This document shows positions 28,977-56,568 of a stretch of 64,000 nucleotides of DNA, in pieces. Numbering within the stretch: position 1 is the first letter of the stretch; every line of letters begins with the position of its first letter. A model generated the notes under the pieces. That model was not told the DNA's origin and ran no database searches. It worked only from the letters and a program-made list of their open reading frames with translations. This DNA is from Proteromonas lacertae (lineage: Eukaryota), in contig NGBS01000331.1 in the NCBI GenBank assembly GCA_002245135.1, forward strand, positions 1 through 64,000. Reading direction: 5' to 3'. Both the position numbers and the translations under genes were made by a program.

Positions 28977-29222
28977 ATAATAATGAAAGAAAGGGGGAAA
29001 TGAGTACAATTTGAAATCCCTATTATTTTTGTATTTTTTGTATTGATTTCCCCCTATGTGTTTTTTGTCCGTTTCATAATCAAATCATAATTCAAGCTTA
29101 CATTATTTTTCGCTTTTCTGTTTGAATTTAAACAAAAATAATTATTCCATTTGAATCCTCATCTTATGATGAATCTATTTATGTTGTTAGTTCAAATTAT
29201 AGAAAGTGAATGACATATAATT
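28977..29222. repeat. Left terminal inverted repeat
   Basis: Starts ATAATAATGAAAG; reverse complement of 48139-48384 with one mismatch seen. Confidence 0.96.
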
Positions 29223-29257
29223 CGAAATCAATAATCATTAATTCAAATTGAATTTAA

Positions 29258-30012
29258 TTATAATCTTCCATAAGAAAATAAATCGACTTCTTCTATTTGA
29301 TCTTCACCATAAGAAAATAAATTAACTTTTTCTGTTTGATCTTCATCTGTTTCTTCATCATCATCATCCAGATTATCAAACAACGATGCTACAGAGACTT
29401 TACTACTTACCATACTTTTCGAATTCTTGTTTTCTTCTTTTTCGCATTTTGCTAATTCTGCTTCAGATTCAGATATTTCTTCTAGATCATCATCACTATC
29501 ATTACTATAAATAATTCCAATAACATTGTTGTTGTTATCATCCATCTCGTTAGGGTAATCTTGACATTTGTCTCCATCTCCCCACTCTGTTATGTTTTCT
29601 TCAGTTAGTGACTTTAATGAGCAGTATATATAATCCAATTTTCTGTCTATCTATAAAAAAATAATATAATATATATATAAATATACAATTGACTTTGGAT
29701 TTGATGGTAAATAGTTAAAACAATATATAAAATTGGACTTGAAGTCCCTGTAGTACTGTATTCTGTCACGAGAATCGTAGATCCAAAAATGTTTTAAAAT
29801 GGCTGATCATTGTATTCATATTTGGATAGTAGCAGTTTCTTTTCCACCTAAGAATAATATAAATTAGGAATATACTTATATCTGCTTAGTTCTCTTTGTC
29901 TTTTCATGATATCATTCAAATTGTATACTACTATATCAAACTCAGGGTCATCGTGATAGTATTTAATTTTCACTCTGTAGATAATCTCTTGTTTCAAGAT
30001 TATACGTGCCAT
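29258..30012 (-). CDS. Intron-containing viral hypothetical protein with acidic tail (one frameshift)
   Basis: ATG at 30012; GT-AG introns 29875-29848 and 29686-29651; paralogue of 47080-47884; needs one single-base correction in exon 2. Confidence 0.7.
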
Positions 30013-30404
30013 AATTCTATATATAAATTAATTAAAAAAATACATTAAATACAAGTGTATTAATTATGTACTTTTTATAAAGAATGAATTGACTTTAGCT
30101 AACTATAATTTATATATACTTACTAGGGTATATACCCATCTCAATTATATCAATATCTTATTTCAGGCAATAATCTAAATCATCTTTGATTATGAAACAT
30201 ATATGAAATCTAACTATATCAATCGATTGCTCATGATATGCCATATAATAAGAAACACATCAGATTATTCATTATGTCAATGGATCATGAGATATTATTT
30301 TTTTAACAAACCTCAAACATTTGTATTACTAAACAAACAATAACTTTATTGATTAGACCCATAAAAATTTAATAATATATATAATAGCAAAAAATACAAA
30401 GAAT

Positions 30405-30899
30405 ATGCCTGACCATTTAACATATAATATGCTTAGACAACCTAACGGTGAATATGCTTTTTATATTCATAGATATAGAGACAATAGAGCACATAGATGG
30501 GTTATTCAATTTCCAATTAAAACAATGAAAATATTAAAAAGAAATAAAGTAAAGGTGTTTATATGTGGTTCACTCAGAACTAATAGAAATGATCCAGAAG
30601 TACTAGGTGATTATAGACATCATGGTGATCAATTAATGATAAACCTCAAAACCTATGGGTATGACAGAAGAGCTTCAATATTAGTAATGAATAGAAAATT
30701 AAGAAATGGAGAACATGAGTATGCAGATGGCGATTGTATTCCTCAAAAATTTAAAAAATATGTTTTTCATCATATGAGTTATCAATGGAATGGAGGGAAT
30801 TTTTATCACATACATCCAGTTGATAGAAATGTTGCTGATGGAATTAGTAGTAGTAGTAGTAGTGATAGTAGTAGTAGCAGTAGTAGTGACTCTGATTAA
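30405..30899 (+). CDS. Viral hypothetical protein, Ser/Asp tail
   Basis: Clean 164-aa ATG ORF. Confidence 0.75.
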   Translation: MPDHLTYNMLRQPNGEYAFYIHRYRDNRAHRWVIQFPIKTMKILKRNKVKVFICGSLRTNRNDPEVLGDYRHHGDQLMINLKTYGYDRRASILVMNRKLRNGEHEYADGDCIPQKFKKYVFHHMSYQWNGGNFYHIHPVDRNVADGISSSSSSDSSSSSSSDSD

Positions 30900-31007
30900 A
30901 TACTTAAAAATTCTATATATTATTATTATATATGTTTGTTTTTGTTTGATAAACATACTATTAATAGTTACTATATTTTAAATAATATCAATTATAAAAA
31001 TCACAAC

Positions 31008-31379
31008 ATGTCTTATTATGGAGGATGGCCAAAAGGGTTTAAAATTAGTAAAGACTGGAATACATATATTCCTAAATCAGTTAACAGGAGTAAATGGAGA
31101 AAGAGCTATGATTTGTATAGAGACAAAGTAAAGAATGCACTACAAAACAAAACGAAAGTTAAATTACAATATAGACAATTAATGAAAATGTATGAACGAT
31201 TATTAGCTGCTAATCCACCTAAACAAAGAGGAAGACCAAAAGGAAGTAAAGATAGAGCAAAACGTAAACCAAGACGAGCCGGGCCACGAGCCGCGCCAAA
31301 GAATGATCCACATCGTATAGTTGTGCATAATGGCAGGCATTATCAGTATGGTATTCCAGTTCCTAATATGGATAATTAA
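31008..31379 (+). CDS. Basic AT-hook protein
   Basis: PKQRGRPKGSK AT-hook core; very basic; ATG at 31008. Confidence 0.7.
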   Translation: MSYYGGWPKGFKISKDWNTYIPKSVNRSKWRKSYDLYRDKVKNALQNKTKVKLQYRQLMKMYERLLAANPPKQRGRPKGSKDRAKRKPRRAGPRAAPKNDPHRIVVHNGRHYQYGIPVPNMDN

Positions 31380-31486
31380 AGTAATTCTTTATATATTCTG
31401 TTTTTTATGTAATGTTATGTGTGTTTGTTTTTTGGTGTTTGGTACTGCTATATCCGGCGGCCACTTGACAACTTGAATTGTAATAT

Positions 31487-31557
31487 AAGTTACAACTGGC
31501 GCCAGTTGTAACTTGAATTGTGATGTATCCTACAACTGGGCCCAGTTGTAAGATACA
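31487..31557. repeat. Tandem palindromes (TACAACTGG core)
   Basis: Perfect 28-bp palindrome 31487-31514 and 20-bp palindrome 31531-31550 (extends to 31524-31557). Confidence 0.9.
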
Positions 31558-31607
31558 AGTTTAACCAAAAAAACATAATATAATATAATATAAAAAGCGA
31601 AATAAAT

Positions 31608-31844
31608 TTATATAGTCATTTTCCTTTGTTTAGTGATTTCAATAAGAGACTGAATATCCTTAAGTGTCTTATCATGTTCTAACCCTTTATTCATCATGGC
31701 ATCTATATTATTTCTAAGTTCTTCTATGTCTGTATTGTTTGGAATACAATTGTGTGCCTTTAAGTATTTGAAAAGAGCCAAAGCTATCATATACAATACA
31801 AATACGAGAACTGAAAGCAAAACAGTTATTACATCAAAGTCCAT
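31608..31844 (-). CDS. Small membrane protein
   Basis: N-terminal TM plus short coiled coil; degraded homologue at 27790-27895. Confidence 0.7.
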   Translation of the reverse strand: MDFDVITVLLSVLVFVLYMIALALFKYLKAHNCIPNNTDIEELRNNIDAMMNKGLEHDKTLKDIQSLIEITKQRKMTI

Positions 31845-31911
31845 GTGTGTTTATGAGAATCTTATATAAGAAAACAAAATTAATCAAAGTAATGTATTTA
31901 TTATCAATAAA

Positions 31912-32514
31912 CTAACTTACAAGACATTGGTTATTATTAATATATTCATCCTTAATGGATCTTGGTGATATTGGAGATAAGTCATAATCTGTGAGATTGA
32001 CATTGTCATTGTCATTTCCAAGCTTGACTTGTATTTCTTCTATTTCTTTATTACTATTATCATTAGGAGGAGGAGGAGGTAATATATTAGCTTCATGATT
32101 CATCATAATAATACTTTCTAATAATTGATGAGTTTTTTCAAAAGATGGGTTTCTTTTCTCCTTAATCTTGTTAACACACTCAAGGAACATATTAGGTGTA
32201 ATGCGCACAGTCTCATCTACATCAGAAATACCTAATCTTTGAATTAATTTCTCTTTACTCTCATCCCACCAACATCCATTTTTGAATCTATATTCCAAGT
32301 CTAATCTATACTGTTCATCGACGTATTTGAGTATATATCTGATCTCACTATAAGTTAATTCCTTTTTCTCGCCACATATGAGATTCCATAATTTAGATTT
32401 GGTTGGTGCCCTCATTTTGCCATCCTTTCTAAAGCAATTAATAAGTATTTGTTTATCAGAGTTCCAAAAGTTATATGGCACTGTTCTAAATTTGTGCTCC
32501 TGATCGTTATTCAT
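31912..32514 (-). CDS. Viral hypothetical protein
   Basis: 200-aa ORF; central part duplicated at 57322-57581. Confidence 0.75.
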   Translation of the reverse strand: MNNDQEHKFRTVPYNFWNSDKQILINCFRKDGKMRAPTKSKLWNLICGEKKELTYSEIRYILKYVDEQYRLDLEYRFKNGCWWDESKEKLIQRLGISDVDETVRITPNMFLECVNKIKEKRNPSFEKTHQLLESIIMMNHEANILPPPPPNDNSNKEIEEIQVKLGNDNDNVNLTDYDLSPISPRSIKDEYINNNQCLVS

Positions 32515-32599
32515 TTTTAAAAAATAAAAGTGTAATTAATACTAATAATGACAATATTGACATTATTAACGAATTTATTTTCAAAATAGATTTTATCTT

Positions 32600-33556
32600 A
32601 TGTTAGTTTCGAATCATCGTGTATACTACTTAAATTCTGATATGATTGTATTATCTGATTCCATGGGCGGAGGAAACAAGTATAAGAAGACATTAAAATT
32701 GCAATCATTCGATGATTATACTCATGTCAGCTTATTACATGCTGTTATACCCAATTCATTCCCAACTATACAGGAAGAAACAAATGATGAGTTTTCATTA
32801 GTATTCACATTGGGATGGAGACATGATGTTCAAGTAGATACACCAAAGTATCCAAACATCATAAAACACCTCAAAATACCAGAAGGATTCTATGATGAAA
32901 CTCAGATATTAAGTATGATTAATAATTTAGTCAAAAATATGACATATGATGTTTTTGGAATAAAAGATGATGCATATAATACTGAAGGTTCACATGTGTC
33001 TATTATACAAGGAAAAGGAGATTTATTTCGTATAGACAATTTCGATGATAATCAAACATATCATATTGAGGTAGCTAATGATATGAATATAATATACTAT
33101 CAAAAAGACCCAGTATATTGGATAGAAAAATTAGAGATCATCACCAAAGATCTTAGTTACAAAATATTAGGCATACCCAAAAACAATTACTGGTGTTGTT
33201 TTAAAGAATATATTCCATCTGAAGAACCAGAGAATCAACAAGAAATTATGGTTAAGCCATTCCCATTTACTCAATTACCATTTCGTCCTTCTTTGATATG
33301 GGTTAATTCTATATCCATTAGATTAGACATAGTGAATATTATGCAGGATTCAAATGTATTAGAAAATATACCCGTTTCAAATCCTGAGTTACCATTTATT
33401 ACATATCAGAATAATGACATATTGAATACATCAAAGAGATTCAATAATACCTATAACAATGGTATGATCACTATTCAGATTACTCAACAAAATGGCTATG
33501 AACTTAATCTTGATAATATTGAGTTTAATTTAGATATTGTTGTATTTAAAGTCTAA
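32600..33556 (+). CDS. Minor capsid (penton-like, single jelly-roll) protein
   Basis: VSLLHAVIPNSF, IPEGFY, ITIQITQQNGYELNL patterns typical of PLV/virophage mCP; lies immediately upstream of the MCP. Confidence 0.8.
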   Translation: MLVSNHRVYYLNSDMIVLSDSMGGGNKYKKTLKLQSFDDYTHVSLLHAVIPNSFPTIQEETNDEFSLVFTLGWRHDVQVDTPKYPNIIKHLKIPEGFYDETQILSMINNLVKNMTYDVFGIKDDAYNTEGSHVSIIQGKGDLFRIDNFDDNQTYHIEVANDMNIIYYQKDPVYWIEKLEIITKDLSYKILGIPKNNYWCCFKEYIPSEEPENQQEIMVKPFPFTQLPFRPSLIWVNSISIRLDIVNIMQDSNVLENIPVSNPELPFITYQNNDILNTSKRFNNTYNNGMITIQITQQNGYELNLDNIEFNLDIVVFKV

Positions 33557-33587
33557 TTTTTATATTTCTTTATTCTTTTGTTTTCTA

Positions 33588-35075
33588 ATGGCTTTATCTA
33601 TTCCAAAAGAACAGAAATATGGTGTAGATGTCCCTGTGATGCTACCCTTCTATAATTATGTGAGATTGACTCCGATGGGATCAACATCAGAATATACTCT
33701 AAGTGATAACGCGTATACAGAAGAGATTAGATGGGAGATAAGTGGAGATAATATTATCAATTTAGCTAAGTCATATATTCAATTCGATATAGATGTAGAA
33801 ACAGAACCAGTAGCAAAAGGTTCAGAAGTAGGTGCTGTTAGAGCAGATTTAAGTAAGAAACTTATAAATAAAGATAATGATTTATATCCAAGTACAATTG
33901 GAGGAATTAAAGAAGGGTTTGGCTTGGCCTCTTTTAGAATTTGTAACCAGACTGGAACAGATCTGGTCAAGCTTGATGATTCGTATGAACCATATCGTGT
34001 ATTTATGGATGAATTAGTTAGAAAGAGATGCGATATATTCTATCAAGACAATTACTATGATGGAATACAATTAGATTGAAGTAACGATGAACACAGTTAT
34101 CTTATTCAAGATGTTAATAAATGGAAAATGGATAAAGAAATGAACGGTGCATTTACTGATACTGTAGACACTGTAGAGATTTTTGATACTAGTAATAATA
34201 AAGTAACAAATGCTACTGTGTATAAGAGTAAAAAGACATTACATTTCAAATTACAGTTAGGTAAATTTTACAATACATTTGCTGCATTAAAGAGCGATGT
34301 ATTCTTTGGAGAGAGAATGTATATATGCATTCGATTCCAAACTAAAGCAAATTATGGAAATTTGAAATCATATACACCAACGAAATATTGTATTGATGAA
34401 AATGGTTATGAAGATTTAAATAATGTTATAGCATGGGATAGGAATGGTGGTATTAAAAATATGACATTTAAGAATTTTAAATTTTATGCTTATATCAACA
34501 AGGATACTCAATGCAACAATAATACCAAACAATATTGTTTATCAAAACCTATTCAATTCAATGATTTCAGATGTCATCAAATTGTTGTACCATCAGGTGG
34601 ATCTGGCATATTCAATTATTCATTCACATTGAATAGTTCCAATGGACCATTTGTTCGTTACATTATCTATAGGCCATGGATAGAATCATTAAAAAGATAT
34701 GCACATGTACCTGAAAATGCACAATTCAGATGGATGATCAATGATTTTGTATATCAGCCAGATTATACACTTATGCAATATTATGATAGCTTCATGACTG
34801 TCCGTGAATATTTCCAAGACTCATGGTTTGATATATTCAGAAAAGATAAGAAGTTCAATGACAAGTTGTTTGAGATATTGAATTTTGGCTCTAAGGATTT
34901 GGACAATATTAAGAACCAGGCAGGTAGACCTTTAGCTACTGATTTGAAAATAACCTTTGAATTTTCAACACCTGGTAAGAATGACTTTACTAATAATGAT
35001 ATATCTCATCGTTTCTATATCATCACTGGACGCATGGTCACTATTAATGGAAGTGGTATTGTAAGTGTAGTTTAA
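33588..35075 (+). CDS. Major capsid protein (double jelly-roll), one in-frame TGA at 34077
   Basis: IRWEISGDNIINLAKSYIQFDIDV N-terminal MCP pattern; two ORFs in the same frame total ~495 codons; sits between mCP and ATPase. Confidence 0.8.
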
Positions 35076-35142
35076 AAATAATCATAATCATAATATCAAT
35101 AACGGCTATATTTCTTATAATTATGTTTTTGTTATTTTTGTT

Positions 35143-35985
35143 ATGAGTAAAGTTAATTTAGAAAAAATAAACAACATAGTCATAAATCCTGTTGAGACAG
35201 TAGTCAAAGGATGTGGAAAACGCTCCAAAGATAGTGTCCTTGGATATGACTATTTTCAGGAGCCTTTCTGCAACATATTTATTTTAGCTAAGAAAAACAG
35301 TGGTAAGACTACACTTATATTTAATATGATCCAACACTTGTTAAAAAAGGGATATGACCAAGTAGTGTATTTTTTCGTTGCAACTATATCCAAGGATATT
35401 ATATATGAGAAAATCACTGATATGCTCAAGTATAACCAAATTGAGTACCATTGCTATGATTCAGTAGTGAATGAAGATAGAGTGAATATATTGGATGCAG
35501 TATTAGATAATATCAAAGATATAGACAAAGATAATTATGATTACCCAGAGAATATATTTATATTCGATGATATATCATTTGATTTAAGAAATAAATCCGT
35601 TTCTAAATTACTTAAGTCAAACCGTCATTACAAGTCAAAAGTAATTATATCAAGTCAATATGTCACTGATATTACTCCATCAGTTCGTTTACAGCTTGAT
35701 TACTGTTTGGTATTCAAAAACCTGGTAGGTATAAGAATGTATGCATTGATATGGATCGATTTCGATGTTTTCAAATCATATTATGATTATGCAACCAAAC
35801 AGAGTAATCACTCATTTTTATATATCGATTTATATAATCATGAATTTAGAGTGAATTTTGATAGTAGAATAAGAGATAATAGTAATAATAGCTATAATCA
35901 CAATAATAAATATGATCACCTCATTTCCTATAGCAGCGATGATGAGTCCACTGATTCATCAAGTTATCCCAGCGATTCGGAATAA
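35143..35985 (+). CDS. A32/FtsK-HerA-type genome packaging ATPase
   Basis: Walker A AKKNSGKTT, Walker B FIFDD, RHY..IISSQY. Confidence 0.92.
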   Translation: MSKVNLEKINNIVINPVETVVKGCGKRSKDSVLGYDYFQEPFCNIFILAKKNSGKTTLIFNMIQHLLKKGYDQVVYFFVATISKDIIYEKITDMLKYNQIEYHCYDSVVNEDRVNILDAVLDNIKDIDKDNYDYPENIFIFDDISFDLRNKSVSKLLKSNRHYKSKVIISSQYVTDITPSVRLQLDYCLVFKNLVGIRMYALIWIDFDVFKSYYDYATKQSNHSFLYIDLYNHEFRVNFDSRIRDNSNNSYNHNNKYDHLISYSSDDESTDSSSYPSDSE

Positions 35986-36040
35986 TAATAATCCCCATAT
36001 TGTCACTAATATAATTTTTTTGTTTATTTTGCTATATTTT

Positions 36041-36913
36041 ATGTTTGGCCGTCCTATTAAAAAACAAGCTGTATCAACAGATCTAACACCTGTCACGAGG
36101 GCACTGACATCGATTACAAGCAATTTGGGAGAAAAAGTTGGAGATGCTAAATCGATTAGAGAAATGTTGGTCGATATCAAGAATAGTGGTACAGGAGGAT
36201 CATCTGGATCAGGTGGTGGTATTGATAGTGCAACTAGCGAGAAAATTGATGGAATTGTGAATGTCATTGGAAAGACCAAATTAGAGAGTTGGGAAAATAA
36301 CATATATTATATGTTATCTATTTTGTATTCTACAATTTATGATGATGCTAATTCAATTGCTTATAATGTCAATAGTATAATGTCCTATATAGGATATCGA
36401 AGTGAATATCAAGATAGTTCATGGAAAATGGAGAATCGTATAAAATGGAGTTCTATGGGTGAAAATAACATGATATTAAAATCTGTAGATGGTCAATTAG
36501 AAATTGTTCAAGCAAGACAAGTTTTACCAAACTGTTATTGCTTTGTAAGATATGCAGCTTTTCAAACATATTTGCAAATAGAAATACTAAATCCTGTTAG
36601 AATAATAACAAGCGAACTAATAATTAATTCAATCTAAACTCCAGATGTAGAAATAATTTTAAGCAAATATTTAGGTTATACAAATAATGTACCAAGAATA
36701 GATATTTTTTTTGAGTCATTAAGTGGACATCATCAAGTATGCTTTTTTGAAATCACTCGTGATATATGTTGTTTCAGTATGAAAAATCCTACTACAGAAC
36801 ATAATGTGGATAACTTTGAAGGTAATTGTATTCTAATCCCACAAAAAATAATATTTCCATATGGTAATAATGTTATAATTCATAAAGATGATGCATTTGA
36901 TTTTAATATATGA
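36041..36913 (+). CDS. Putative fibre/spike-like virion protein, in-frame TAA at 36635
   Basis: Helical N-terminus, Gly linker, beta-rich C-terminus. Frame stays open 92 codons past the TAA. Same position after the ATPase as 55646-56495. Function is inferred. Confidence 0.5.
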
Positions 36914-36920
36914 ATTATAA

Positions 36921-37622
36921 TTAATTCTTCTTGTTTCTCTTGTATTGTTGGTTTTGATTATCACTCTCAGTTCTTCTTTTCATCGGAGCAGGTGTTGTTG
37001 GTACTGGAATAATATCATAATCTGCAGGTTGTGTATACATATTCTCCAAATCTATATCATTTACATCCTGATTCTCAGCACACTGATCCTCATCATCCTC
37101 CTTCTCCTTCTCAAGTTTTTGCTCAAATTTCTTGATACTACTATGCACTTCAAATTTTGGGATAATAGTGTATTTTTCTTTATCCTTCTTATCTAATACA
37201 GTTATCTGTCTAATTCTCAAATCACACTGACACTCATAAAATAAATAACTTGGAGGATCTTTAATCTTGTTTAACCATGCCCAGAATCTGACAGTGTTAT
37301 TATCGTTGTCTTCAGAAAATATCACTTGGAAGCCACATTTCTTATAGTCTTTAACCATATTTGAGTCATCTGTATACTTGATGGCATAATCCACAAACAT
37401 TTTTTTCAAAGGCTCCTTTACATCTTGATAATAATTTTTAATAGGTCTTCTGTTCTTAAATAAGAACCTTCCTGGAGTAAAACTCATGACATAGTACTTT
37501 GCATCTTCAATCTTTTCTGTATTTGGTTCAGCTTCATTACACCATCCTTTTACAGTTAAATAAGTAACATCTCTATCATCTAATGTGATAAAATTAGATC
37601 CATTATTGATATTTGAACTCAT
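36921..37622 (-). CDS. Hypothetical protein, possibly ssDNA-binding (OB-like)
   Basis: Size, architecture and weak N-terminal similarity to 60948-61721; basic C-terminus. Confidence 0.5.
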   Translation of the reverse strand: MSSNINNGSNFITLDDRDVTYLTVKGWCNEAEPNTEKIEDAKYYVMSFTPGRFLFKNRRPIKNYYQDVKEPLKKMFVDYAIKYTDDSNMVKDYKKCGFQVIFSEDNDNNTVRFWAWLNKIKDPPSYLFYECQCDLRIRQITVLDKKDKEKYTIIPKFEVHSSIKKFEQKLEKEKEDDEDQCAENQDVNDIDLENMYTQPADYDIIPVPTTPAPMKRRTESDNQNQQYKRNKKN

Positions 37623-37805
37623 ACCGCCAAAATGAATATTATATATCCGTTTCACAAAAAAGATTTATGTGGTTTGAATATATTTGATACATTTGGAGCG
37701 GTTATACAAATTACCGCGCATACAATGAACATGTGTAAATTGTATAGTTTGATTACACAAGCTTATTTGATAGATTCCATTTTCATCATTTCATTACACT
37801 CAAGT

Positions 37806-38045
37806 ATGTCAGACAACCAAAAAGATACTTCAGATAAACAAGAAAAATATAAGGACTTAGATTATTGTGATTACATGCCATTCGAAGAAGCTGTAAACAG
37901 ATTCTGGGAGCGTATGGAGCAATTAGACCCTAATGGGAGAGATACCTTAGATAAAGAGTATAATCGATTTTTAAAGAATTTTAATCAAGAAAGAGAAGAA
38001 ATAATGAGAAGTAATTATAATAATTATAATAATAGTAACCATTAA
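37806..38045 (+). CDS. Small viral hypothetical protein
   Basis: Charged coding-like part of ORF 37632-38045 from MSDNQK. Confidence 0.55.
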   Translation: MSDNQKDTSDKQEKYKDLDYCDYMPFEEAVNRFWERMEQLDPNGRDTLDKEYNRFLKNFNQEREEIMRSNYNNYNNSNH

Positions 38046-38057
38046 TTAATTAATTAA

Positions 38058-38702
38058 TTACGGTCTATAGTATTCTCTTTTTGATATGACTCCCACAAAT
38101 TTACAAAGACAATGATACACGCTCCATATTAACCGCTCATACTCATCTAACTCCCTATCAAAATGCACCAACTCATAGTGATTTCCTTCTTTTTCATTAT
38201 TACGTATACGTTCCCATAGGCATATTAATACATTATGAACTCCAACTTTTACTGCAGAGTACGGAACAGTATCTTTCAAACATAATTTTATAGCATCATC
38301 GACTCTATTACTTACCTCTATACAATCTTCTACACTGAGATTAAAAAATCTTGTTTGAATTCTATAATGAGTTAGAGATTCTTTAAAAATTTCTAAAATA
38401 CGCTGAATTTGAGTTATATTGAATTTCACACGTGGTAAACTCTCTTCACCAATTGGTAATGCTAAACCAGCATGTCCCTCACAATCACATATTGCTCTCT
38501 CGCTATGCTCCAAAACATCTAAATTAGCTTTATATGTATGAACATCCATTTTCTTTACATCTTTCTCATTGAATAGACATACTGGTTTTACAGCATCTTC
38601 AATCGGCAATGCTCTTTCTAATTCAGTGAAATCTAGAGGTTTAACAATACTTTTAGGTGAGTCAGTATGTTGTAATGGTGGTACAGTGTTCATGATAAGC
38701 AA
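38058..38702 (-). CDS. Viral hypothetical protein
   Basis: 214-aa ORF with normal composition. Confidence 0.7.
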   Translation of the reverse strand: MLIMNTVPPLQHTDSPKSIVKPLDFTELERALPIEDAVKPVCLFNEKDVKKMDVHTYKANLDVLEHSERAICDCEGHAGLALPIGEESLPRVKFNITQIQRILEIFKESLTHYRIQTRFFNLSVEDCIEVSNRVDDAIKLCLKDTVPYSAVKVGVHNVLICLWERIRNNEKEGNHYELVHFDRELDEYERLIWSVYHCLCKFVGVISKREYYRP

Positions 38703-38752
38703 AATAAAATTAATTAAAAAAAAATAAAGTAATTACGTTTAATCACTAACAC

Positions 38753-39301
38753 TTAAAGATCTTCTAAATCTTCTTCTTTATCAAGGTTTTTTGAATCGTC
38801 ACATTGCATGTTTGGCTTGATCAAATGCTTATGTTTTTTTGATGGTACTAATTCATCTAATGATTCAGATATAGCATTTAATAATTTTCTCTTGATGATG
38901 TGTATCTTATTATCATTGTCATTCACAATTTCAGGAATATCATATACATCATACCATTGATCATTATCGCTATCATAATCATCCTGCTCCATATTCGATT
39001 CAGCGTCATTTTCATCTTCACTATATGCAATGAAATCCTTTAAATTACCATTACTATCAACATCACTTGCATTTGGATCATCTTCAGGATCATAGTCATC
39101 TGATTCATCGTCAGTACATTCTGCTTCTCCATACAAGTACTTATACACATTATCTAAATAATCATTCTCTCTTTTTCTTTTTTGACTGAATCGCATTTTC
39201 TTATCTTCTAAATTTTCTTTCTTTTGGTCTTGATCATTTGATTTACCCATTATGCCTATAATATGTATGGTATTATGGTTGTTTGAATCCATAGAACACA
39301 A
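38753..39301 (-). CDS. Acidic hypothetical protein with NLS-like motif
   Basis: D/E-rich; QKRKR; start uncertain. Confidence 0.65.
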   Translation of the reverse strand: MCSMDSNNHNTIHIIGIMGKSNDQDQKKENLEDKKMRFSQKRKRENDYLDNVYKYLYGEAECTDDESDDYDPEDDPNASDVDSNGNLKDFIAYSEDENDAESNMEQDDYDSDNDQWYDVYDIPEIVNDNDNKIHIIKRKLLNAISESLDELVPSKKHKHLIKPNMQCDDSKNLDKEEDLEDL

Positions 39302-39360
39302 TATACAAAAAATAATAAAATGAAACGAATATATTTCAAATATTGATATTATGTTAATTA

Positions 39361-39720
39361 TTAACCTATTAATGTCATATTTTGTCTAGCATATTGCACA
39401 GGAGTTAAATTCTGTGCTGGGTATGATTGTTGTTGTTGTATTGGTGTATGATTTCTCTCCATTAACACTTCATCTGCCAATTTATTTAATATAGCTTGTG
39501 CTTCCTTGAATGTCCATGGATTAATACTCTTTAACATCTGTTGTGCCTCTGGAGGTAATGTTTCGAGTGTTTTCAATACTTGAGTTTGTTGATCATTTTG
39601 TACCGATTGTTGCGATTGTTGATTTGGTTGTTGTTGTGGTAGATATTGAGGGTGTTGACCATCTTGTTGATATGCAACACCACTATTAAAAGTTATTTGA
39701 GGTATTGGACCAGCTGACAT
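39361..39720 (-). CDS. Gln-rich hypothetical protein
   Basis: ORF from MSAGP. Confidence 0.65.
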   Translation of the reverse strand: MSAGPIPQITFNSGVAYQQDGQHPQYLPQQQPNQQSQQSVQNDQQTQVLKTLETLPPEAQQMLKSINPWTFKEAQAILNKLADEVLMERNHTPIQQQQSYPAQNLTPVQYARQNMTLIG

Positions 39721-39794
39721 ATTAAAAACGGCTATAATGGCAATATTGATATTATTGACTATATTATCACTCAAAAATATAATTATTTCAAATT

Positions 39795-40290
39795 ATGGTT
39801 AAAAGAAGTTCAAAAGCGAAATATCGTAAGTATATCATAGGTAAAGGCAAGTTCTGGGATGGAGTAAAGAATTTCTTTAAGAAAACAAAAATTTTATCAA
39901 CAGCAGCTAGCTTAATCCCAGGTGTAGGTCCAGCCTTAGGTAATGTTGTATCCAATGTAGGATATGGTAGAAAACGTAGAAGAAGAGGAGGACAAGCAGA
40001 ATGGAATTATGATGGTGGTATAAGTGGTGGTACCAAAGGAAGTAAAAAGTGTAATTAGTGGTGGTCCAGGCAGTATGCCCTATTTAAAAAATGGCGGAAT
40101 GGCTAATCCATTTGCTGTAAAGATGTTAGGTGGTCCAAGCACTATTCCAAAAAAGAATTGGACAAAAGGTGGTCCAAGTACTATACCGAAATTTTTGTTA
40201 GCAAAGAAAAAGACTGGTTCTGGTAAAAGACGTAAAAGTAGTAATAGTCTCGATAATCGATATATTGACAATAAGATTAGAGTTTTCTAG
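39795..40290 (+). CDS. Basic core-protein precursor(s) with repeated GG sites (two overlapping ORFs or one frameshifted gene)
   Basis: IIGKG-KFWDGVKNFFKK amphipathic helix, RKRRRRGG, ISGG, MLGG, GGPSTIPK x2. Confidence 0.7.
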
Positions 40291-40348
40291 TCTAATTTTA
40301 TTTTTTCTATTTTAATCGTATTTCTTTATTTTCATTCGAAATAACATA

Positions 40349-40636
40349 ATGCCAAAAGGTGGTAGAAGACGTAGATGCGTTTATGGAAGAAGGGGTGGTT
40401 CATTTTGGGGTAAGTTAAAAAATTGGGGTTCCAAAGCATTTAACTGGGCAAAGGATCATAAAATAGCATCCAAAATAGCTAGGGAATTTGGAAAGAACGA
40501 TATCGCAGATGGATTATCAACAATGGGATTTGGTCGTAGTAGGTCAGGAAGAGGTAGATTACCATTCAATGGAGGTGGGAGTAATCAACAAGCATTATTG
40601 AATGCATATTTAAAATCAAAGGTGGCTCGAATGTAA
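40349..40636 (+). CDS. Adenovirus pVI-like membrane-active core protein
   Basis: GG-SFWGKLKNWGSKAFNW resembles the mature pVI N-terminal amphipathic helix; Arg/Gly-rich. Confidence 0.65.
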   Translation: MPKGGRRRRCVYGRRGGSFWGKLKNWGSKAFNWAKDHKIASKIAREFGKNDIADGLSTMGFGRSRSGRGRLPFNGGGSNQQALLNAYLKSKVARM

Positions 40637-40727
40637 ACTTGACTTTTAATAATGCTAATAATACTTATATTATTATTTTCATTGTTATTTTTGTTAATTT
40701 TATTTTTTCATAACATAGAAATAAAAA

Positions 40728-41342
40728 ATGAGTGATACTGAATCAACTGAATATGTGAGTGATGATAGTTCTACTGATGTGTCTGATAGTGAAGTAGAGT
40801 CAATAAATGAAAATGATTCCAAGATGTCCAAACCAAAAATCACAGAAGCTGAACCAAGTGATGCTATGATCAATGAATTACTATCATAATTCTCTCCAAA
40901 GGATATATACAACATATTACAGAATGATGGATCATCATCTCATAAAAATTCAAAAAAAGGTAAAAAACACTCCCATAAATCCAGATCAAGATCAAGATCA
41001 CATGAGAGATCCAAAAGAAGATCTAGTAAGAAACAAAAATCAAATGCTTTAGACGAGCCTAAGTCCAAACGTGGTGGCGGTAGAAAAAATAGCAAAAAGG
41101 ATAGGGACTCATCATTACCTCCTCCTAGTCGTATGACAAAAGCTGAATTACAAATAGCTTTGAAAGAAACTAGAGATCAATTAGGCAAATATATGAAGAA
41201 ATTAGAAAAGAGTTCAAATCCAAAGAAAGAGAAAATAGAGAAAGTAAAAGAACCAGAACCAGAAGAAGATAAACCATTAGGTAATGATATTGCAGGTAGA
41301 GAAATACAAGGCGAGCCTATCGAGCCTGTTTATGTTCAATAA
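40728..41342 (+). CDS. Acidic/RS-rich basic protein, in-frame TAA at 40887
   Basis: ATG at 40728 is in frame with ORF 41133-41342; contains an SRSRSRSH..RR tract. Confidence 0.65.
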
Positions 41343-41408
41343 TATTAATAATACTTATATTACACATTATTATTATAATTAAATTGTTTTTTTATTTTCT
41401 ATTAAGTA

Positions 41409-44400
41409 ATATTTGGTGCTACTCCTACAACAACAAATTCGACGAGTGCGCCGGCCACTTCAAATATTCAAGCATCGAATGTTACAACTGCCCCCAGTTA
41501 TAATAATACAACTTCAATACCTACAACTGGTGCAGGTTATAATAATCAAAGTTCAAATGCTGCAAGTTACGCCGGAATGATGGCAGGTGCTGCTGCCGCC
41601 ACGGGGCAGCAGCCCAGCCAACATTCCAAAATAACACACAACCAATACAACAACAACAACAACAACAACAACAAAGATATAATATAGATGCTATTATGGA
41701 AAAAATACAACCATTTTTGATTAATCAATATGATTATGAATCAGTTAAGCAAATGGTTATGAATAATACAAAACAAGATTTAGAAAATGTATGTAAAAAT
41801 GTAGGATTGCCATTAGATATTATATCAAAGTATTCCAGCTATGGTGGAACAATAGATCAATTAGTAGATTACTTACATTATTTCAAATATCAATGTGGTC
41901 GTAGTGTTCCAGAAGCACGATCAGATGTGTGTAATTTAATTATTGGTATGGGTAGTGAATATGTTTTATGGCCAAAAGTAAATTATGGTTTATTTGGTAT
42001 GTCTTTAGATGGATATCCAAAGACAGGTTCAGGAAGAAGAAAACATGTTCATTTCAAACATAAGAAACATCACAGAAGAAATAAACTCAAATTAGAGAGT
42101 ATCCCACGGAGGCATCTCTTGGCTACTAAGAAATTAGGTGGTAATAGTGGTATTATACCATTAAGAGTGGGTCAAAGTGTTGGTCCTAATGAGCATGTCA
42201 TTATTACTAATCCAAGACAACAAATGTATGATGCTGCTAGTGCTGCTTATATTGGAACATCACAATTACAGCCAAGTCAAATACCAGATTATATTCAACC
42301 ATATATACCAAAAGAAACTGTAGGATATGATTATAATTGGAATTATGATAAATTATTTAGTCCAGGTTTGAATAGACAAGCTCGAAAAGAAGTTCAATAT
42401 GCATTAACTAATAATTATGCTTCTTTGCTGCCTAACAATTATCATATTAATTTTTATGATATGCTAGATCGTGAACATAAAACAGGACATTTAAGAGGAA
42501 CATTCCCATTAGCAACATTAGATACATCTAATCCAAGAAGCTATCTTTTGAACTGGCCTGAATATGTTACAGAAGCAGATGTTCAGGCATATGATAATGG
42601 AATGAATAGAGTTACAAATCCTTTGTTACAAAAATTTCCTAAATTACAAAATTATAAATCATTACAAGAGATTATAGAAAAGAATCCTCAATTAGCAGCC
42701 TATAAAAATTATAGACAAGATTGGTTGACCTCAACTTGGGACAAATTAACAGGTAATGATAAAGATGCAATAGAATATTATAACAAACTATTATTACAGC
42801 AGGAGTATTTGCAAAATGAATTAGTTGATGAGTAAGTAAGATCAATCAATATTCAGATCCATATAATTTTGATCCAAATCGAGCTGAAAAAGTAAAAGAA
42901 TATATTGCATTGAATAATCAAAAGGCACAAAGATATATGGATGATCAAGAGATATTAGAAAGATCAAAATTTTATAGATGGGCATTAGATCCAAAAAATC
43001 AGGAACTGATGAATAGCGCTATAGATATGGGTGAAGGACAGTGTACATTAATTAATGAAGATAAATATAGAGAGCTGAATGAAATAGCATCACAGAATAG
43101 TAGAGATTTCATTAACTTTGATTATAACAGAGAGAAGTTAGGTCACTCACTTCCTCAAGAGTGGGTGAATGCAGATAATAAACAAAAATATGAAATAGCT
43201 ATTGGTTTAGTGAAAACTGCTTGTAGTTCATAGTCACAATTTGAAAATTCACAGTTTCAAAAAGCACTTGATTCATTACGTGAATCTGATTTTATGGGTT
43301 TTGCTGGTAATTTGTTCCTGTGTGTAGAGAATGTATTTAGGATATTTCCACAAATATACTATACAATGAAGTCATATTTGGTAGGTGGAGTTACTCCTCA
43401 AATGTTTGAAGTAGATCATGCAATGAAATATGTTCGTGCAATAGTAATGACATGTTTGGCTTATTGGTTATGGAAAAAATCCAAACTACCAACATCAGGG
43501 TTCTTGTATGTAATGTGGTACTTCATTTTCGACTACTATGAAATAATTCGTATGCTGTCAGGTGGTAGATTACCTGCTATCACTGACTTGTATTATGGTA
43601 ATTCAGAAAAAGTTAAGTCAATGTTACCTGAAGCAATTCAAAAATCATGGTTACCTGTAGACTTGTTGTATAACTTTGGTGTTTCATTTATGTTCAATAC
43701 TCATCCATATGTTCGATACTTATTTCAATTAGTTCCATTCTTCTACAAATTTTCTAATATTGGAAATATAGATGCAAAAAATGTAGGTGATACATTAAAA
43801 ACAGCAGCAACTGTAGCTGCAGCTGCAAATGGAGGTGATGCAACAACTGCTGCAGCAGCAGTTAAAGGTATCAGTGAATTATCAAAAGCTATGCCATCAA
43901 TGGCAAAAACTGCTGTTGCAGCTGATCCAACAGGTACATTACAAACTGTTGCAGGTATAGGAACAGTATTCAGTGCATTGACTGCTTGTTTTGGTTTGCT
44001 AGATGCAGGTGGTTTATTAAACTGGTTAAAACCAACACCATATCAACACAAGAATGCAATCAAAATGGATAACTACGTGAAACGTTCACAACAAACAATT
44101 CCAAGTTCACTCACTAATTTTGGTAGAGCAGTGAGTAATTTAGATCAAGCAAAACAACTCAGTGAAGCTATGAGTTACTTTGGAATAGGTAATGGAAATA
44201 ATAAAAAAGTAAAGAAATTAATTTCACGTAGGAAAGTTTTGTATAACAGTATCACTTCAGATGCCTTATCGAACTTTGATATAGAGTTAATTGTGAAAAA
44301 TGAGTTCAATAATTTTCATGGAAAGTTCATGGGAGTGTTCTGCTGGGACGAGCTTGTACTTCTTATACCCAAAAAGAAGAATCAATGGGGAATCATAATC

Positions 44401-44757
44401 AATACACTCACCACACAAGCTAGCCCTGATTCTATAGGTCATTGGGTGGCCTTAGTAGTTGACAATATCAAGAAGCAATTCCTGTACTATGATTCATTTG
44501 GTGAAGATCCTCAACACTTGGAAGAATTTAAAAAAAAATTGAAAAAATTAAAGAAGTATCATAATGAAAAGTATGAACTTAAAATCAATGGAGTACAGAA
44601 TCAAAATTCAAATACTGCTAACTGTGGTTTTTTTGCTATTAATTTTTTGAAAAATATTTTAAGAGATCAGTGTAGTTTCAAAAAGGCTACTGACTATAAT
44701 ACAATAGTGGGTGAAGCAAAAATTAGGTTAATGAAAAAACAATTTGGATTAATATAA
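41409..44757 (+). CDS. Reconstructed ~1100-aa virion protein ending in an adenain/Ulp1-like (clan CE) cysteine protease
   Basis: GHWVAL..YYDSFG..QNQNSNTANCGFF catalytic H-D-Q-C in 43294-44757. Upstream ORFs join via single-base shifts at ~41615 and ~42832 and an in-frame TAG at 43231. Confidence 0.75.
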
Positions 44758-44805
44758 TATATAATATATAATTATTACTTAATTATTTTTTTTTTCTGTT
44801 TTTCT

Positions 44806-45213
44806 TTATGTGTGGTAAAATATTGTATGAGTTTCAATATATTCTATCATCTCTGTATCCACATGAGTACATTTGAAGAATATTGGCATCTTACCATTAA
44901 AGCGGCTTTGTGGCATTCTAATGATTACTTTTTTCATTGTTGGTGTGTATGTAACTTTGGGTCTATCTCTATTTCCTAAGTCACAAGGACCTACAAACAC
45001 TAATATCAAACGTTGACTCATAATCATGTTAATCATTTTGTGTGTTAACTCAAAATACCATTGATATATTGGTTTTCGATGATAAAAAAATATAAGGAAT
45101 TGTAGGCTATACAAATCCAAGTATATGTCTGGACCACTTAAATGATATTTCTTTGTTACCTTGGATTCAAGTTCTGGTAATTTATATTCAATCTGTGGTG
45201 GTAGTGTAAGCAT
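44806..45213 (-). CDS. Viral hypothetical protein
   Basis: ORF from ATG 45213 (MLTLPPQ). Confidence 0.65.
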   Translation of the reverse strand: MLTLPPQIEYKLPELESKVTKKYHLSGPDIYLDLYSLQFLIFFYHRKPIYQWYFELTHKMINMIMSQRLILVFVGPCDLGNRDRPKVTYTPTMKKVIIRMPQSRFNGKMPIFFKCTHVDTEMIEYIETHTIFYHT

Positions 45214-45276
45214 ATATAAAAAATAGAATATACTATATGTATATGTATAATAAAATATTTTAAAATAAAAGAAATT

Positions 45277-45371
45277 AAAAAAAATGGGATTACTAATAGT
45301 CTGTGCTAGGAATCGAACCACTAATGCCAGCTGCATTACTCTTTTTTCCTTGCACAGTCTATCAGATCCCA
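45277..45371 (-). ncRNA. Putative Pol III hairpin RNA (VA-RNA-like)
   Basis: 87-nt stem-loop with a consensus B-box GGTTCGATTCC, a G-U pair only on the minus strand, and a T8 run directly after. Confidence 0.6.
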
Positions 45372-45378
45372 ATTAAAT

Positions 45379-45457
45379 AAAAAAAAGGGCATTTAGATAT
45401 ACCGTGCCAGGATGATTCAAGCCGAATTTCAATGGCGCAATATTAAACAACACATCC
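45379..45457 (-). ncRNA. Second putative small hairpin RNA
   Basis: Imperfect stem with G-U pairs on the minus strand, degenerate B-box GGCTTGAATCA, T8 run. Confidence 0.4.
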
Positions 45458-45615
45458 AAGTAGAAATTATTAAACTTCCATAAATTCCTTGTGAAATTAA
45501 TTTAATAAATAAATAATTATAAATTAGAAACGCAGCCCTCATCGTAGCTAGTCTATCCAATGCCCAATAATAAAAAACAACATATACAATATATAGCATA
45601 ATAAAAATTTATTCG

Positions 45616-46918
45616 TTACAATATTGATTTGTCTCCCTTCTTTCTCTTGGGTCTCTCCAGTATTTTTCTAAACCATGTGGTTGGTGCATCATCTTTTCTC
45701 ACTAACTGCAACTCATAGTGTTTGAATCGAATTAATGAAAAACCTTGAATGTCATTCCCATTGATATCACCTAAATTGTATGAATATCGATTTTTCTTGA
45801 TTATCTTATATACATTGTCTGACCAGTATATGTTCTTATCCATTTTACGTCTTCTCTCTTTGAATCTCACCAAATCACCTACTTCGAAATTTTGACCAGT
45901 ATGATCTAATTTTTCATAATTCTTTAAGTTGTAGTTAATTGATTTTTGTAATATTTGTTTTTGTAATTCTGGACTATGGAATACCTCATTTGGGGTATAT
46001 CCTTTAATTCCTGGTAATGGCTTGTTGTTATAGTCATCTATCACTTCCTGTATTATACTATCTAGTTTCAATTTATAATTCATATCTGGTATAATATGCT
46101 TATCATTGTGATCAATATCTGCCATATATGTAGGTGCATCATATCCCAGATCCACCAAGTGTTTGTACAACAGTCTTTTTATCATCACTCACTGATCTAT
46201 CCAATAATGACTCTATTTTATGCTCTGAACCATCTTTTTGAAAATATGATATTCCTTCAGCATCACATAACTTCTTGATATTTGAAAAACTAGCATCAGC
46301 ATCTGATAGGATACTTACCACATTTTTATGTGTTTTGTTTCCATAGGCATCTGTTTCATAATACCACTTCTGAAATGCATCCAATGTAATATCACCATAT
46401 TTATTAGGCATAAATATTGCCCATACTTTTCTTGAATTCATTTCGATAAAATACAAATGTTCCATATCAGGTAAGAAAAACACTATATCCATTTGGAAGT
46501 ACCCTGGCTTTTTGATAGTTGCGAATGGATTATTTTTTTTATATTTGAAATCGACAATTTGTTTTCCAGGTTGTCTCCTTAAGTATTCACGTACTACATC
46601 TGGTGGTGGAGCTATATCATTCATACTAGACAAATGTTGTGTCATTTTGACAAATTCATTTTCATTAAGGTAATAATATTTTTTATATAGTTCATCTAAG
46701 CGTGATCGATATTGGGCAATTTGGTTTGACATTTGGTCTTCATACGAAGCCTCTCTTGTTGGATGTGTAATATTCGGTGCTCCATGGTTAATATATGTTG
46801 CAAGTGATAAGTTACCATTTGTAGGTAACGGTTTGACAGGATATGGGTTCTGGTTGCTATATGAGCTGTATAAATGTGGATCGTAACTATTAGTGCTAAA
46901 CATATGGTCCAAAAACAA
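45616..46918 (-). CDS. Polinton-type rve (retroviral-like) integrase, frameshift near 46188
   Basis: FQMDIVF, SRKVW, ILSDADASF, LDRSV, YNNKP..G.TPNEV, FEVGDLVR, WSDNVYKI. Confidence 0.9.
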
Positions 46919-47079
46919 AAAACAAAAGTAATAATGAAATTCATTTCATTATGATTATTATCTAAATTAATAGAGTTATATGTCTTTATAGCAACATTTA
47001 AAAAAATATATATCCGTTTCATATATACATATAACATTTGTTCATCGTTCAACATTATTTTCCTTTCAATTCACTTATT

Positions 47080-47884
47080 ATGAGCAACTGGAAGATACTA
47101 TACAAAAACAGCTTCATTAATGATCCAAATCCGAGCATATATAAAATTTTATGTGAGAATTTTAAGACGATTACAGAACATGAGAAAGATTTGCAACGTT
47201 ATAGGTATATTATATTATTATATGTCTATAGCTGGAATGGTAACTTCAGTATAAGGCGTTTCAGAACATGGTACAAAAGATTCACAGAAATTGAAAAGAT
47301 TGATGCTCGACATGAAAGATTAAAAATGTCCAGAGTGTTGATGTCTGTCCTGCTATGTAATATCATGTATAAAGAGGATCTGGACAAAAGCATCGTATAT
47401 CCATTTAATATATATTTCAATTTTGAATCAATAGTATGATCGTATGCTTGACCATGCAATGGAGGACATGGTGGAACTGACTTGTATGTATATCATACAT
47501 TTCGGTGACAACGATTTAGCAAAATGCGAAAAAGAAGAAAACAAGAATTCGAAAGGAGATATAGTTTACAGAAGTACTGCTGAAAGTATAGTAAGTAGTA
47601 AAGTCTCTGTAGCACCGTTGTTTGATAATCTGGATGATGATGATTATAATGATGATGATGATGACAACAACAAGTTGTTAAAGGTGGTATCCACAAAAAG
47701 AAAGTGCAGTACATCTAAAACTCCAAGATTCAAAAGAAAGAAAATAAATCAAAAAAACATTTCAACCAAAAACCAAAAACAAGAAGATAGTACTACAGAG
47801 GAAGAAGATGATGATGATGATAATAACTTCTCACAATATATAGTTGATGATGATGAGGAGCCAGAGTACCAAAATGATTATTAA
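47080..47884 (+). CDS. Intron-containing viral hypothetical protein, acidic tail with NLS
   Basis: GT-AG introns 47205-47231 and 47395-47434 give a continuous frame; intron positions match the paralogue at 29258-30012. Confidence 0.8.
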
Positions 47885-48056
47885 TCTCTGGTCCTAATTG
47901 GTTCAAATGATAGATTGTGTTTGTGTGGGAGTGTTGTTTTCATAATTTACTTAATTAATTAGCATTATAACAAGTCTTATAAGAAATATCAATATTAGAA
48001 AAATAGATGCGTTTCGAGATTTGACTTGAACTCCATTTTTTTTTTTTTTTTATTAC

Positions 48057-48108
48057 ATAGGATGGTCACCATATGGTGTCATATCACACCATATGTTGAC
48101 CATCCTAT
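48057..48108. repeat. 52-bp hairpin next to the right TIR
   Basis: 23-bp arms with one mismatch and a 6-nt loop, preceded by a long T run. Confidence 0.85.
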
Positions 48109-48138
48109 TGAGATTGTTTTTATTGAATTATTTTTTGA

Positions 48139-48384
48139 AATTATATGTCATTCACTTTCTATAATTTGAACTAACAACATAAATAGATTCATCATAAGAT
48201 GAGGATTCAAATGGAATAATTATTTTTGTTTAAATTCAAACAGAAAAGCGAAAAATAATGTAAGCTTGAATTATGATTTGATTATGAAACGGACAAAAAA
48301 CACATAGGGGGAAATCAATACAAAAAATACAAAAATAATAGGGGTTTCAAATTGTACTCATTTCCCCCTTTCTTTCATTATTAT
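48139..48384. repeat. Right terminal inverted repeat
   Basis: Ends CTTTCATTATTAT, followed by TSD AGCTTG. Confidence 0.96.
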
Positions 48385-48515
48385 AGCTTGAACATGGTAT
48401 TGTTGATATAATTTCACAGATTTTCTTTAAATTTCTAAAGTATATCCCATATGATGCAAACCATATATTTGTAATACTTTCGTGAAAAAATGGAAGAAAG
48501 TGCAACATTGTGTGA

Positions 48516-50593: not shown

Positions 50594-50796
50594 TAAATGG
50601 GACTATGGGACATTGTCACAGAGTTCTAACGAGTGTTCTAGGAGTCCGTCCCCTTCTATATTCAGAGTTGACCTTTACGGGAGCTTCATCGATGCAATCG
50701 ATGAAGGCCCCGTAAAAGTCAACTCTGAATCTAGAATGGGACGGACTCCTAGAACACTCGTTAGAACTCTGTGACAATGTCCCATAGTCCCATTTA
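50594..50796. repeat. 203-bp near-perfect palindrome, GC-richer repeat family
   Basis: 100-bp arms and a 3-nt GCA loop; arm sequence recurs at ~54887-54935; adjacent AGGTAT-type tandem repeat at 50440-50510. Confidence 0.9.
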
Positions 50797-53696: not shown

Positions 53697-54677
53697 ATGT
53701 TTATGTATAAGAGAAAGTATCGTTTTTCATTAGTTATAATTAATATTATTATGTTATTATCAGTGATATATTTATATAACTTTATAACTGAAAACGAAAA
53801 TGATTATTTAAAATATATAGCTTATAAATCATCTAAGATTGAAACGGAATGGATTAATATACTTAAACATCATAAATATAATTACTATAAACAATATTGC
53901 AAATTCATATATCCCTTTACTAACAGATTAATATTATTAAACAATAGTATATCTAAATGTAAAGAATTAAAATATAGTAAATGCATTGGAGAGGATATGT
54001 CATACTTTTTATTCAAAAATAAATATGGCAGGTTGGTAAAAGAGTATATAGAACCTTTATTTGGCATTCTTAGAAACACATTTTCTCAGTGTTGTACTGG
54101 TAAAAAGGGTAATATACTTTCAAAAGATTATCTTTTACCTTCCTATTTATTTGCTTTGTATAAACCTATAGTATATATTGATGCTGGTGCTTCTACATTT
54201 AATGAAGAATATGGAGGATCGAGTCAGAGTTATTTTTACAATTTCTATAAAAAATATCCTTCAACAGAATTTAGAAAATGGTATTTGTGGGAGGCTGCTA
54301 AAATAAATATTACCAAAGCACTAAAAGAAATACCACATGATATTCTCAGAAAATATAATTACTTTAATAAACCAATTACAACAAATATTACATCAAATGA
54401 TAATCCACTTAATTTGATAAAGAAATATCAAAATCATTCATACATTATTTTTAAACTTGATGTTGATACTCCAGCTGTTGAAATTCCTATATTTAATCAT
54501 TTAATAAAATATAACAATATAATGCCAAATGAATTTTATTTTGAATATCATTTTTATGAGCCATATATGATGAAATGGTGGGGAAAAAAGGTAGATAGAA
54601 ATTGTTCATTGTATTGCGCAACAATGAAATTTCTTCACCTAAGAAAAAAAGGAATTAGAGCTCATGCATGGGTATAA
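53697..54677 (+). CDS. Signal-anchored FkbM-like SAM methyltransferase
   Basis: YIDAGAS, FKLDVDTPAVE, EFYFEYH, LRKKGIRAHAW; N-terminal TM. Confidence 0.7.
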   Translation: MFMYKRKYRFSLVIINIIMLLSVIYLYNFITENENDYLKYIAYKSSKIETEWINILKHHKYNYYKQYCKFIYPFTNRLILLNNSISKCKELKYSKCIGEDMSYFLFKNKYGRLVKEYIEPLFGILRNTFSQCCTGKKGNILSKDYLLPSYLFALYKPIVYIDAGASTFNEEYGGSSQSYFYNFYKKYPSTEFRKWYLWEAAKINITKALKEIPHDILRKYNYFNKPITTNITSNDNPLNLIKKYQNHSYIIFKLDVDTPAVEIPIFNHLIKYNNIMPNEFYFEYHFYEPYMMKWWGKKVDRNCSLYCATMKFLHLRKKGIRAHAWV

Positions 54678-55611: not shown

Positions 55612-55645
55612 TGTTTTTATTGATTTTGTTATTTTATTGTTTATT

Positions 55646-56495: not shown

Positions 56496-56568
56496 TCTTT
56501 TTATTAAATTACGCATATTTTTAAACCCTGTCCCAAATCATTTTAAGATAGAGATTCGTTTTTAAAAT

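Follow-up and report, generated by a model that had tools for sequence, protein, structure and literature searches.

The intergenic gap between a split rve-type integrase gene and a 135-aa ORF of a Polinton-like provirus carries two panhandles of RNA type, real and well formed, with an incomplete set of Pol III signals (Table 1). We consider it fairly probable that these two units, designated unit 1 and unit 2, are genes for two Pol III panhandle RNAs. Transcription of the locus by Pol III had been proposed in a preliminary description, and this reading gained support after unit 1 was drawn at its full length, since the units then appear as paralogues, both end flush with a T8 run, unit 1 folds as RNA only and internal TTTT is avoided; it loses support from the lack of a good A-box and from the degenerate B-box of unit 1. 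All positions refer to the window, that is, the whole stretch of DNA analyzed (64,000 nt).

Table 1. Features of the panhandle locus and of its carrier element (positions in the window)
Feature	Position	Strand	Remarks
Polinton-like provirus	28977..48384	.	19.4 kb; TIRs ~260 nt, 98%
Target duplication AGCTTG	28971-28976 and 48385-48390		6 bp; flanks the provirus
rve-type integrase, upstream neighbour	45616..46903	(-)	Split over two reading frames
AATAAA	45613-45608	(-)	Directly past the integrase stop, before unit 1
TATA-like TATATATT	45588..45595	(-)	-30 of unit 1; by sequence
Unit 1 panhandle	45387..45565	(-)	179 nt; 5' start GGGCATTGGATAGACT...
GATAGACT in unit 1	45550..45557	(-)	+9, A-box position; only 5' half A-box-like
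Degenerate B-box-like GGCTTGAATCA	45413..45423	(-)	Unit 1 +143; weak, score ~0, rank 352-536/127,980
3'-arm motif CCTGGCACGG, unit 1 copy	45402..45411	(-)	Common to both units
TATA-like TATATCTAAA	45392..45401	(-)	-31 of unit 2; inside the unit 1 3' arm
T8, putative Pol III terminator of unit 1	45379..45386	(-)	Flush with stem end
Unit 2 hairpin	45285..45370	(-)	86 nt; terminal stem 23 pairs, apical stem 6 pairs
GATAGACT in unit 2	45356..45363	(-)	+8, A-box position; A-box score weak
Exact B-box GGTTCGATTCC	45309..45319	(-)	Unit 2 +52 to +62; score rank 1/127,980
3'-arm motif CCTAGCACAG, unit 2 copy	45301..45310	(-)	Common to both units
T8, putative Pol III terminator of unit 2	45277..45284	(-)	Flush with stem end
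135-aa ORF, downstream neighbour	44806..45213	(-)	Same strand as the integrase

Predicted folds of the two units

For unit 2, a minus-strand fold of 45371-45285 with the helices TGGGAT/ATCCCA, CTGATAG/CTATTAG, CTGTGC/GCACAG, AGGAA/TTCCT and TAATGC/GCATTA had been drawn beforehand, and all five helices were reproduced in our analysis, as was the T8 end at 45284-45277. This 87-nt hairpin has a predicted stability of -36.8 kcal/mol (z -6.43), reached by none of 200 shuffles, and takes rank 3 in stability among the loci after comparison of 12,782 windows of 90 nt along the 64 kb. Both strands gave a z-score of -5.80, and unit 2 folds better than its shuffles with RNA and DNA parameters alike. In the predicted fold, an internal loop contains the 5' part of the B-box.

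A second, weaker hairpin with T8 had been placed just upstream. As drawn (45372-45460), it stays at the level of its shuffles (z -0.19, reached by 80 of 200), and a z-score of -0.64 was obtained for 45380-45445. The segment is the 3' half of unit 1, the true start of which lies about 110 nt further upstream, at 45565: the ATGCCC preceding the upstream T8 pairs with GGGCAT at this position. The terminal stem of unit 1, imperfect and interrupted, consists of 35 pairs, most of which have probabilities above 0.9 and 7 of which are G-U, and encloses a middle of 84% AT. On the minus strand the unit folds with -49.4 kcal/mol (z -3.60, 0 of 200 shuffles), against -33.6 kcal/mol on the plus strand; a separate run as RNA gave z -4.1 for the minus and -2.3 for the plus strand, while the use of DNA parameters gave z -1.0, no better than shuffles. 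The earlier statement that G-U pairs work only on the minus strand was not borne out in that form. It depends on a single G-U pair in the 87-nt hairpin; the signal for the strand lies in the difference between the two unit 1 folds, in the B-box and in the T-runs.

When all 578 runs of at least five T in the window were ordered by how well the last 30 nt pair with sequence upstream, the two units came second and third; among stems flush with the run they came first and second. T8 as such is not rare, with 8 runs within the provirus. In a test conceived post hoc, after inspection of the sequence, unit 1, which is also without AAAA, was found to contain 9 TTT runs and no TTTT, as extreme a case being given by 50 of 5000 dinucleotide shuffles of the unit and by 7 of 5000 of its middle; TTTT was present in every one of 64 T-matched non-coding windows. 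The avoidance of TTTT fits the requirement for a Pol III transcript.

Further hairpins were observed in the window. A long GC-rich one on the minus strand at 41560-41640 (z -4.5), between AAC repeats and a 379-aa ORF of the provirus, has no adjacent T-run or B-box. At 31487-31557 there is a tandem of two near-perfect palindromes whose cores are related (z -6.5), possibly a protein-binding or 3'-end signal. A near-perfect palindrome at 48057-48108 lies just within the right TIR and adjoins a T16 run. A near-perfect 200-nt hairpin occupies 50594-50796, and a sequence related to it seems, by eye, to recur at 54880-54935; it may represent one end of a small transposon of the foldback type.

Promoter signals and relationship of the two units

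The A- and B-boxes were scored with the matrices of PMC12498455 at 127,980 positions of the window. The exact B-box recognized earlier in unit 2 is indeed its single occurrence in the window; 0 of 100 shuffles included an exact copy, and with one mismatch 0.65 occurrences are expected by chance. By the same matrices unit 1 is without a good B-box. No clear A-box had been seen before, and we agree, since the first 25 nt of both units score between -0.4 and -1.8 (ranks ~1,900-2,700 of 127,980). TAGACT opens the D arm in a natural tRNA-Asn of a phage, so that the common GATAGACT motif may represent the 5' half of a degenerate A-box, which we regard as a lead. The TATAW elements at -30 and -31 should be read against a background of 7% per non-coding position for each. 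The previous denial of a tRNA was also correct, as ARAGORN identified 0 genes and the fold is a single long stem, not a cloverleaf. Rfam gave 0 matches at gathering in the window and three unrelated weak matches at E up to 10.

Units 1 and 2 are probably paralogues in head-to-tail arrangement, to judge from the elements they have in common. Both begin with TT-GGG and finish with CCC(A)T8, and share GATAGACT near the start and CCTRGCACRG in the 3' arm. The former is present in the window at chance level (2 found, 1.97 expected), and only its position is notable; the latter is confined to these two sites, with 0.01 expected. The similarity between the 5' 25-mers of the units was reached by 1 of 2000 shuffles and that between the 3' arms by 3 of 2000, two comparisons that are not independent because the arms pair with each other. 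When the 3' arm of unit 1 was compared with 579 other T-run arms, unit 2 came out first; for the start of unit 1, three other 25-mers equal unit 2. In the predicted folds, GATAGACT occupies the same paired register in each unit, with four of the eight bases on the opposite strand changed between the units, and one additional C in the 5' arm of unit 1 has its counterpart in an additional G in the 3' arm, a compensatory indel. With two copies at hand, this pattern would be that of a sequence-constrained motif within a structure-constrained stem. At E <0.2, the covariance model of unit 2 retrieved nothing but unit 2 itself and the reverse strand of unit 2; it did not retrieve unit 1, the 179 nt of which may not be spanned by a model of 90 positions.

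The unequal quality of the two B-boxes raises the alternative that unit 2 alone is a Pol III gene and unit 1 a decayed paralogue, or a structure in Pol II read-through or in the integrase 3' UTR. A good B-box exists in unit 2 alone, and VA RNAII gives a precedent, in the excerpted text of PMC7589676, for drift of one of two tandem copies. Against this view, unit 1 retains its 35-pair stem with high pair probabilities, its flush T8 and its freedom from internal TTTT, and an AATAAA separates it from the integrase stop, suggesting that the integrase mRNA ends upstream of unit 1. We regard this alternative as unlikely. A combination of strong B-box and poor A-box would also suit a TFIIIC-bound site that acts in chromatin as a barrier or positioning element, protects the provirus against silencing and makes little or no RNA, and TFIIIC-only sites exist in yeasts. 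Such a site has no need for a G-U-rich, strand-specific RNA fold or for terminators, and we take this explanation to be very unlikely.

The carrier element and the search for relatives

The Polinton-like nature of the carrier, stated in the preliminary description, was confirmed by the presence of penton, major capsid, packaging ATPase, adenain-type protease, pVII-like core protein and rve integrase, and of TIRs with a 6-bp TSD. Profiles from 13 IMG/VR loci of Polinton-like viruses (PLVs) gave 9e-57 for the ATPase, 6e-27 for the protease, 1e-11 for the penton, 8e-8 for the pVII-like protein, and 3e-5 and 6e-4 for the capsid halves. Pfam identified Peptidase_C5/C48 in the provirus; its rve match is weak (E 0.005) and located on the integrase copy of a second element. 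No replicase or protein-primed PolB was recognized between the TIRs by library and profile searches; protein-primed PolB is the requirement for a true Polinton. Since both the capsid and the integrase genes are split, this provirus copy may be decaying. The flanks are of 20-25% GC with clustered glycosyl- and methyltransferase genes, and the host is probably a single-celled eukaryote of AT-rich genome.

Other parts of the window were noted in passing. A second, diverged Polinton-like element (55201-64000) includes an ATPase fragment and an intact rve integrase (59752-60879), and shares with the first element (32101-32374) a 274-nt piece at 97% identity. Its 683-aa ORF has no library match, and its motifs suggest the start of a PolB. 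No panhandle unit adjoins the integrase of this second element in a scan for T-run pairing. Just beyond the left end of the provirus, at 27790-27960, there are short fragments 85-88% identical to 31685 and 44620, which on sequence identity we take as remnants of an older provirus copy. Finally, 16-18915 is a huge inverted duplication with arms 99-100% complementary, carrying host glycosyl- and methyltransferase genes, either a real palindrome or an assembly artefact.

The position of the units between two same-strand genes suits another alternative, that the stems act in cis in Pol II transcripts, either as hairpins for 3'-end formation or polyadenylation of the integrase mRNA or as a structured leader that controls the 135-aa ORF, with the B-box incidental. 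Hairpin-directed polyadenylation in mimivirus and its virophage, and the further hairpins in this element, such as that at 31487-31557 between convergent genes, count for it. An ATG at 45336 in unit 2 opens a 41-aa F/Y-rich extension of the 135-aa ORF, which is probably a chance open frame. Cis signals of this kind leave unexplained why an exact B-box stands at +52, why both units run flush into T8, why the start motif is duplicated and why TTTT is avoided, and we consider this explanation improbable.

The nearest proteins, ATPases and proteases with 50-65% identity, are known only from Logan contigs. The PLVs examined for the units themselves are distant (ATPase identity 26-39%) and were sampled as 15 loci from 14 contigs, with a total of 193,969 bases, mostly partial genomes. 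In these 15 loci none of the 26 B-box-like sites had a comparable stem and T-run. No tRNA was detected in any of 13 distant loci, no Rfam family in the 11 of 13 scanned, no match to the unit 2 model in 13 loci plus two complete records, and no match to the unit 1 pattern in 21 loci. Nothing comparable being present in distant PLVs, the unit pair is not general in this PLV group; absence at such distance and from mostly partial genomes has little bearing on sister elements. An abstract-level literature search, with subscription journals outside its reach, did not turn up VA-like Pol III RNAs described from either Polintons or PLVs. Among the candidates rejected, one panhandle lies inside a coding frame (PLV locus L014), those in two other PLV loci (L009 and L010) have no B-box, and the loci related by ATPase or protease offered nothing close, L002 being a giant-virus contig and L003 a 1.3-kb fragment of a distant Polinton.

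In IMG/VR, the exact 19-mer had a single match, a tRNA-like T arm on a phage contig, and all five matches to the gapped motif were phage tRNAs. The stem pattern had 0 matches in prokaryote genomes, and blastn against phages gave none. A tRNA-like sequence of a phage, at L001 1969-2042, has the D, anticodon and T arms as well as a terminal CCA, but its acceptor halves are unpaired, and ARAGORN missed it.

The IMG/VR matches, phage tRNAs throughout apart from one tRNA-like T arm, and the location of the B-box at +52, as in tRNA numbering, might indicate the non-functional relic of a captured host Pol III gene, be it of tRNA, SINE, vault-like or other type, that was duplicated once, or else a foldback insertion. 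PLVs are known to capture tRNA and rRNA genes, according to the excerpts of PMC12220804. Neither a cloverleaf (ARAGORN) nor an Rfam match was obtained for the units, their long stems were kept in both copies despite much sequence divergence, and unit 1 does not fold as DNA. We hold an origin of this kind, without present function, to be quite improbable.

Proposed function and comparison with known systems

If the units are Pol III genes, as we favour, the TFIIIC of the host would bind the B-box of unit 2 (+52) and the weak A-box-like TAGACT (+10/+11), and the TATA-like elements at -30/-31 might assist initiation. Pol III would start at the G of GGG and stop in each T8, leading to RNAs of ~180-182 and ~88 nt. 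Unit 1 might use its own degenerate B-box or, as in BLV, the box of unit 2, 236 nt past its A-like motif. The RNAs would fold into imperfect double-stranded panhandles and, by analogy with known viral RNAs, would accumulate after excision and amplification of the provirus and titrate a Dicer-like or other dsRNA-binding defence; alternatively, 21-24-nt RNAs might be cut from the terminal stems.

Given transcription, we see about an even chance that the RNAs would function as decoys for, or substrates of, dsRNA-binding or Dicer-type proteins of the host, again by analogy. To our knowledge, PKR and OAS, the targets of VA RNA, are not expected in protist hosts. When four 24-nt arms were searched for targets against the rest of the window, three of the four stayed at chance level. 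In a host gene at 53947-53959 (+), 13 nt are identical, in the same sense, to part of the 3' arm of unit 1; this match, from one of the four arms, is probably due to chance.

A wider proposition is put forward tentatively, and we think it rather doubtful: that protist Polinton-like viruses encode tandem Pol III panhandle RNAs jamming dsRNA or RNAi defence in hosts without interferon, as a class hidden from Rfam and tRNA finders. The VA strategy would then have been invented a second time, independently, or have been retained since a Polinton ancestor common to both; a common origin has been suggested for adenoviruses and Polintons. If true, the VA-type solution would recur far outside the vertebrates, a defence of protist hosts against such elements at the RNA level would be indicated, and a class of non-coding genes would be overlooked when PLVs are surveyed with Rfam and ARAGORN. 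The two predicted RNAs, with base-exact ends, provide a concrete and cheap test.

Vault RNAs and the EBV EBER1/2 have a terminal stem, a variable middle and a B-box near the 3' end, and the EBERs are tandem. The units are alike in layout, but their A-box is degenerate and there are 0 Rfam matches to these families (gathering; E up to 10). The non-coding RNA genes so far described for PLVs were found by Rfam and ARAGORN (PMC12220804, in excerpt), and tRNA genes were flagged in some MELD viruses (PMC8502044, in excerpt). In the portions of these two papers at hand, such genes are recognizable tRNA, rRNA, snRNA, snoRNA, miRNA and introns, whereas the present unit pair is invisible to Rfam and ARAGORN.

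The pre-miRNA cluster of BLV, as far as the excerpted PMC12498455 describes it, resembles the unit pair in its tandem Pol III-type hairpins with degenerate A-boxes, a terminator and an internal or downstream B-box. The BLV B-boxes sit beyond the terminator, and gaps between A and B of up to ~365 bp are reported to be functional (same excerpts of PMC12498455). In contrast, BLV is a retrovirus with short pre-miRNAs (PMC12498455, in excerpt), while unit 1 measures 179 nt with a large AT-rich middle. The seeds of the two units also differ, and no target was found for them within the window.

The analogy with adenovirus VA RNAs, drawn in the first account of the locus, holds for the layout and fails for membership in the VA RNA family, as there is neither a match in Rfam, which presumably includes a VA RNA model, nor a GGGU/ACCC pair. 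VA RNAs are tandem, G-starting Pol III transcripts with box A in the terminal stem, where Dicer cuts, and are proposed to originate from tRNA genes (PMC7589676, in excerpt). Compared with the VA RNAs as given there, the units differ in length (179 and 86 nt versus ~160 nt), in the spacer (8 nt past T8 versus 98), in the absence from both of the central complementary tetranucleotides GGGU/ACCC, in having no clear box A, and in the B-box, which unit 2 carries in an internal loop and VA RNA in the apical stem. The location differs as well, VA RNA genes adjoining the L1 region of adenovirus and the units lying in an integrase-bearing Polinton-like element. In common with VA RNAI and VA RNAII, as described in these excerpts, the units form a head-to-tail tandem, of likely duplication origin, in a virus with an adenain/pVII-type virion module, begin with G, and have a terminal stem that joins the two ends of the RNA and is followed by at least four T in an oligo-T end. 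As to the internal box B of the VA RNAs, the copy in unit 2 is exact and that in unit 1 degenerate.
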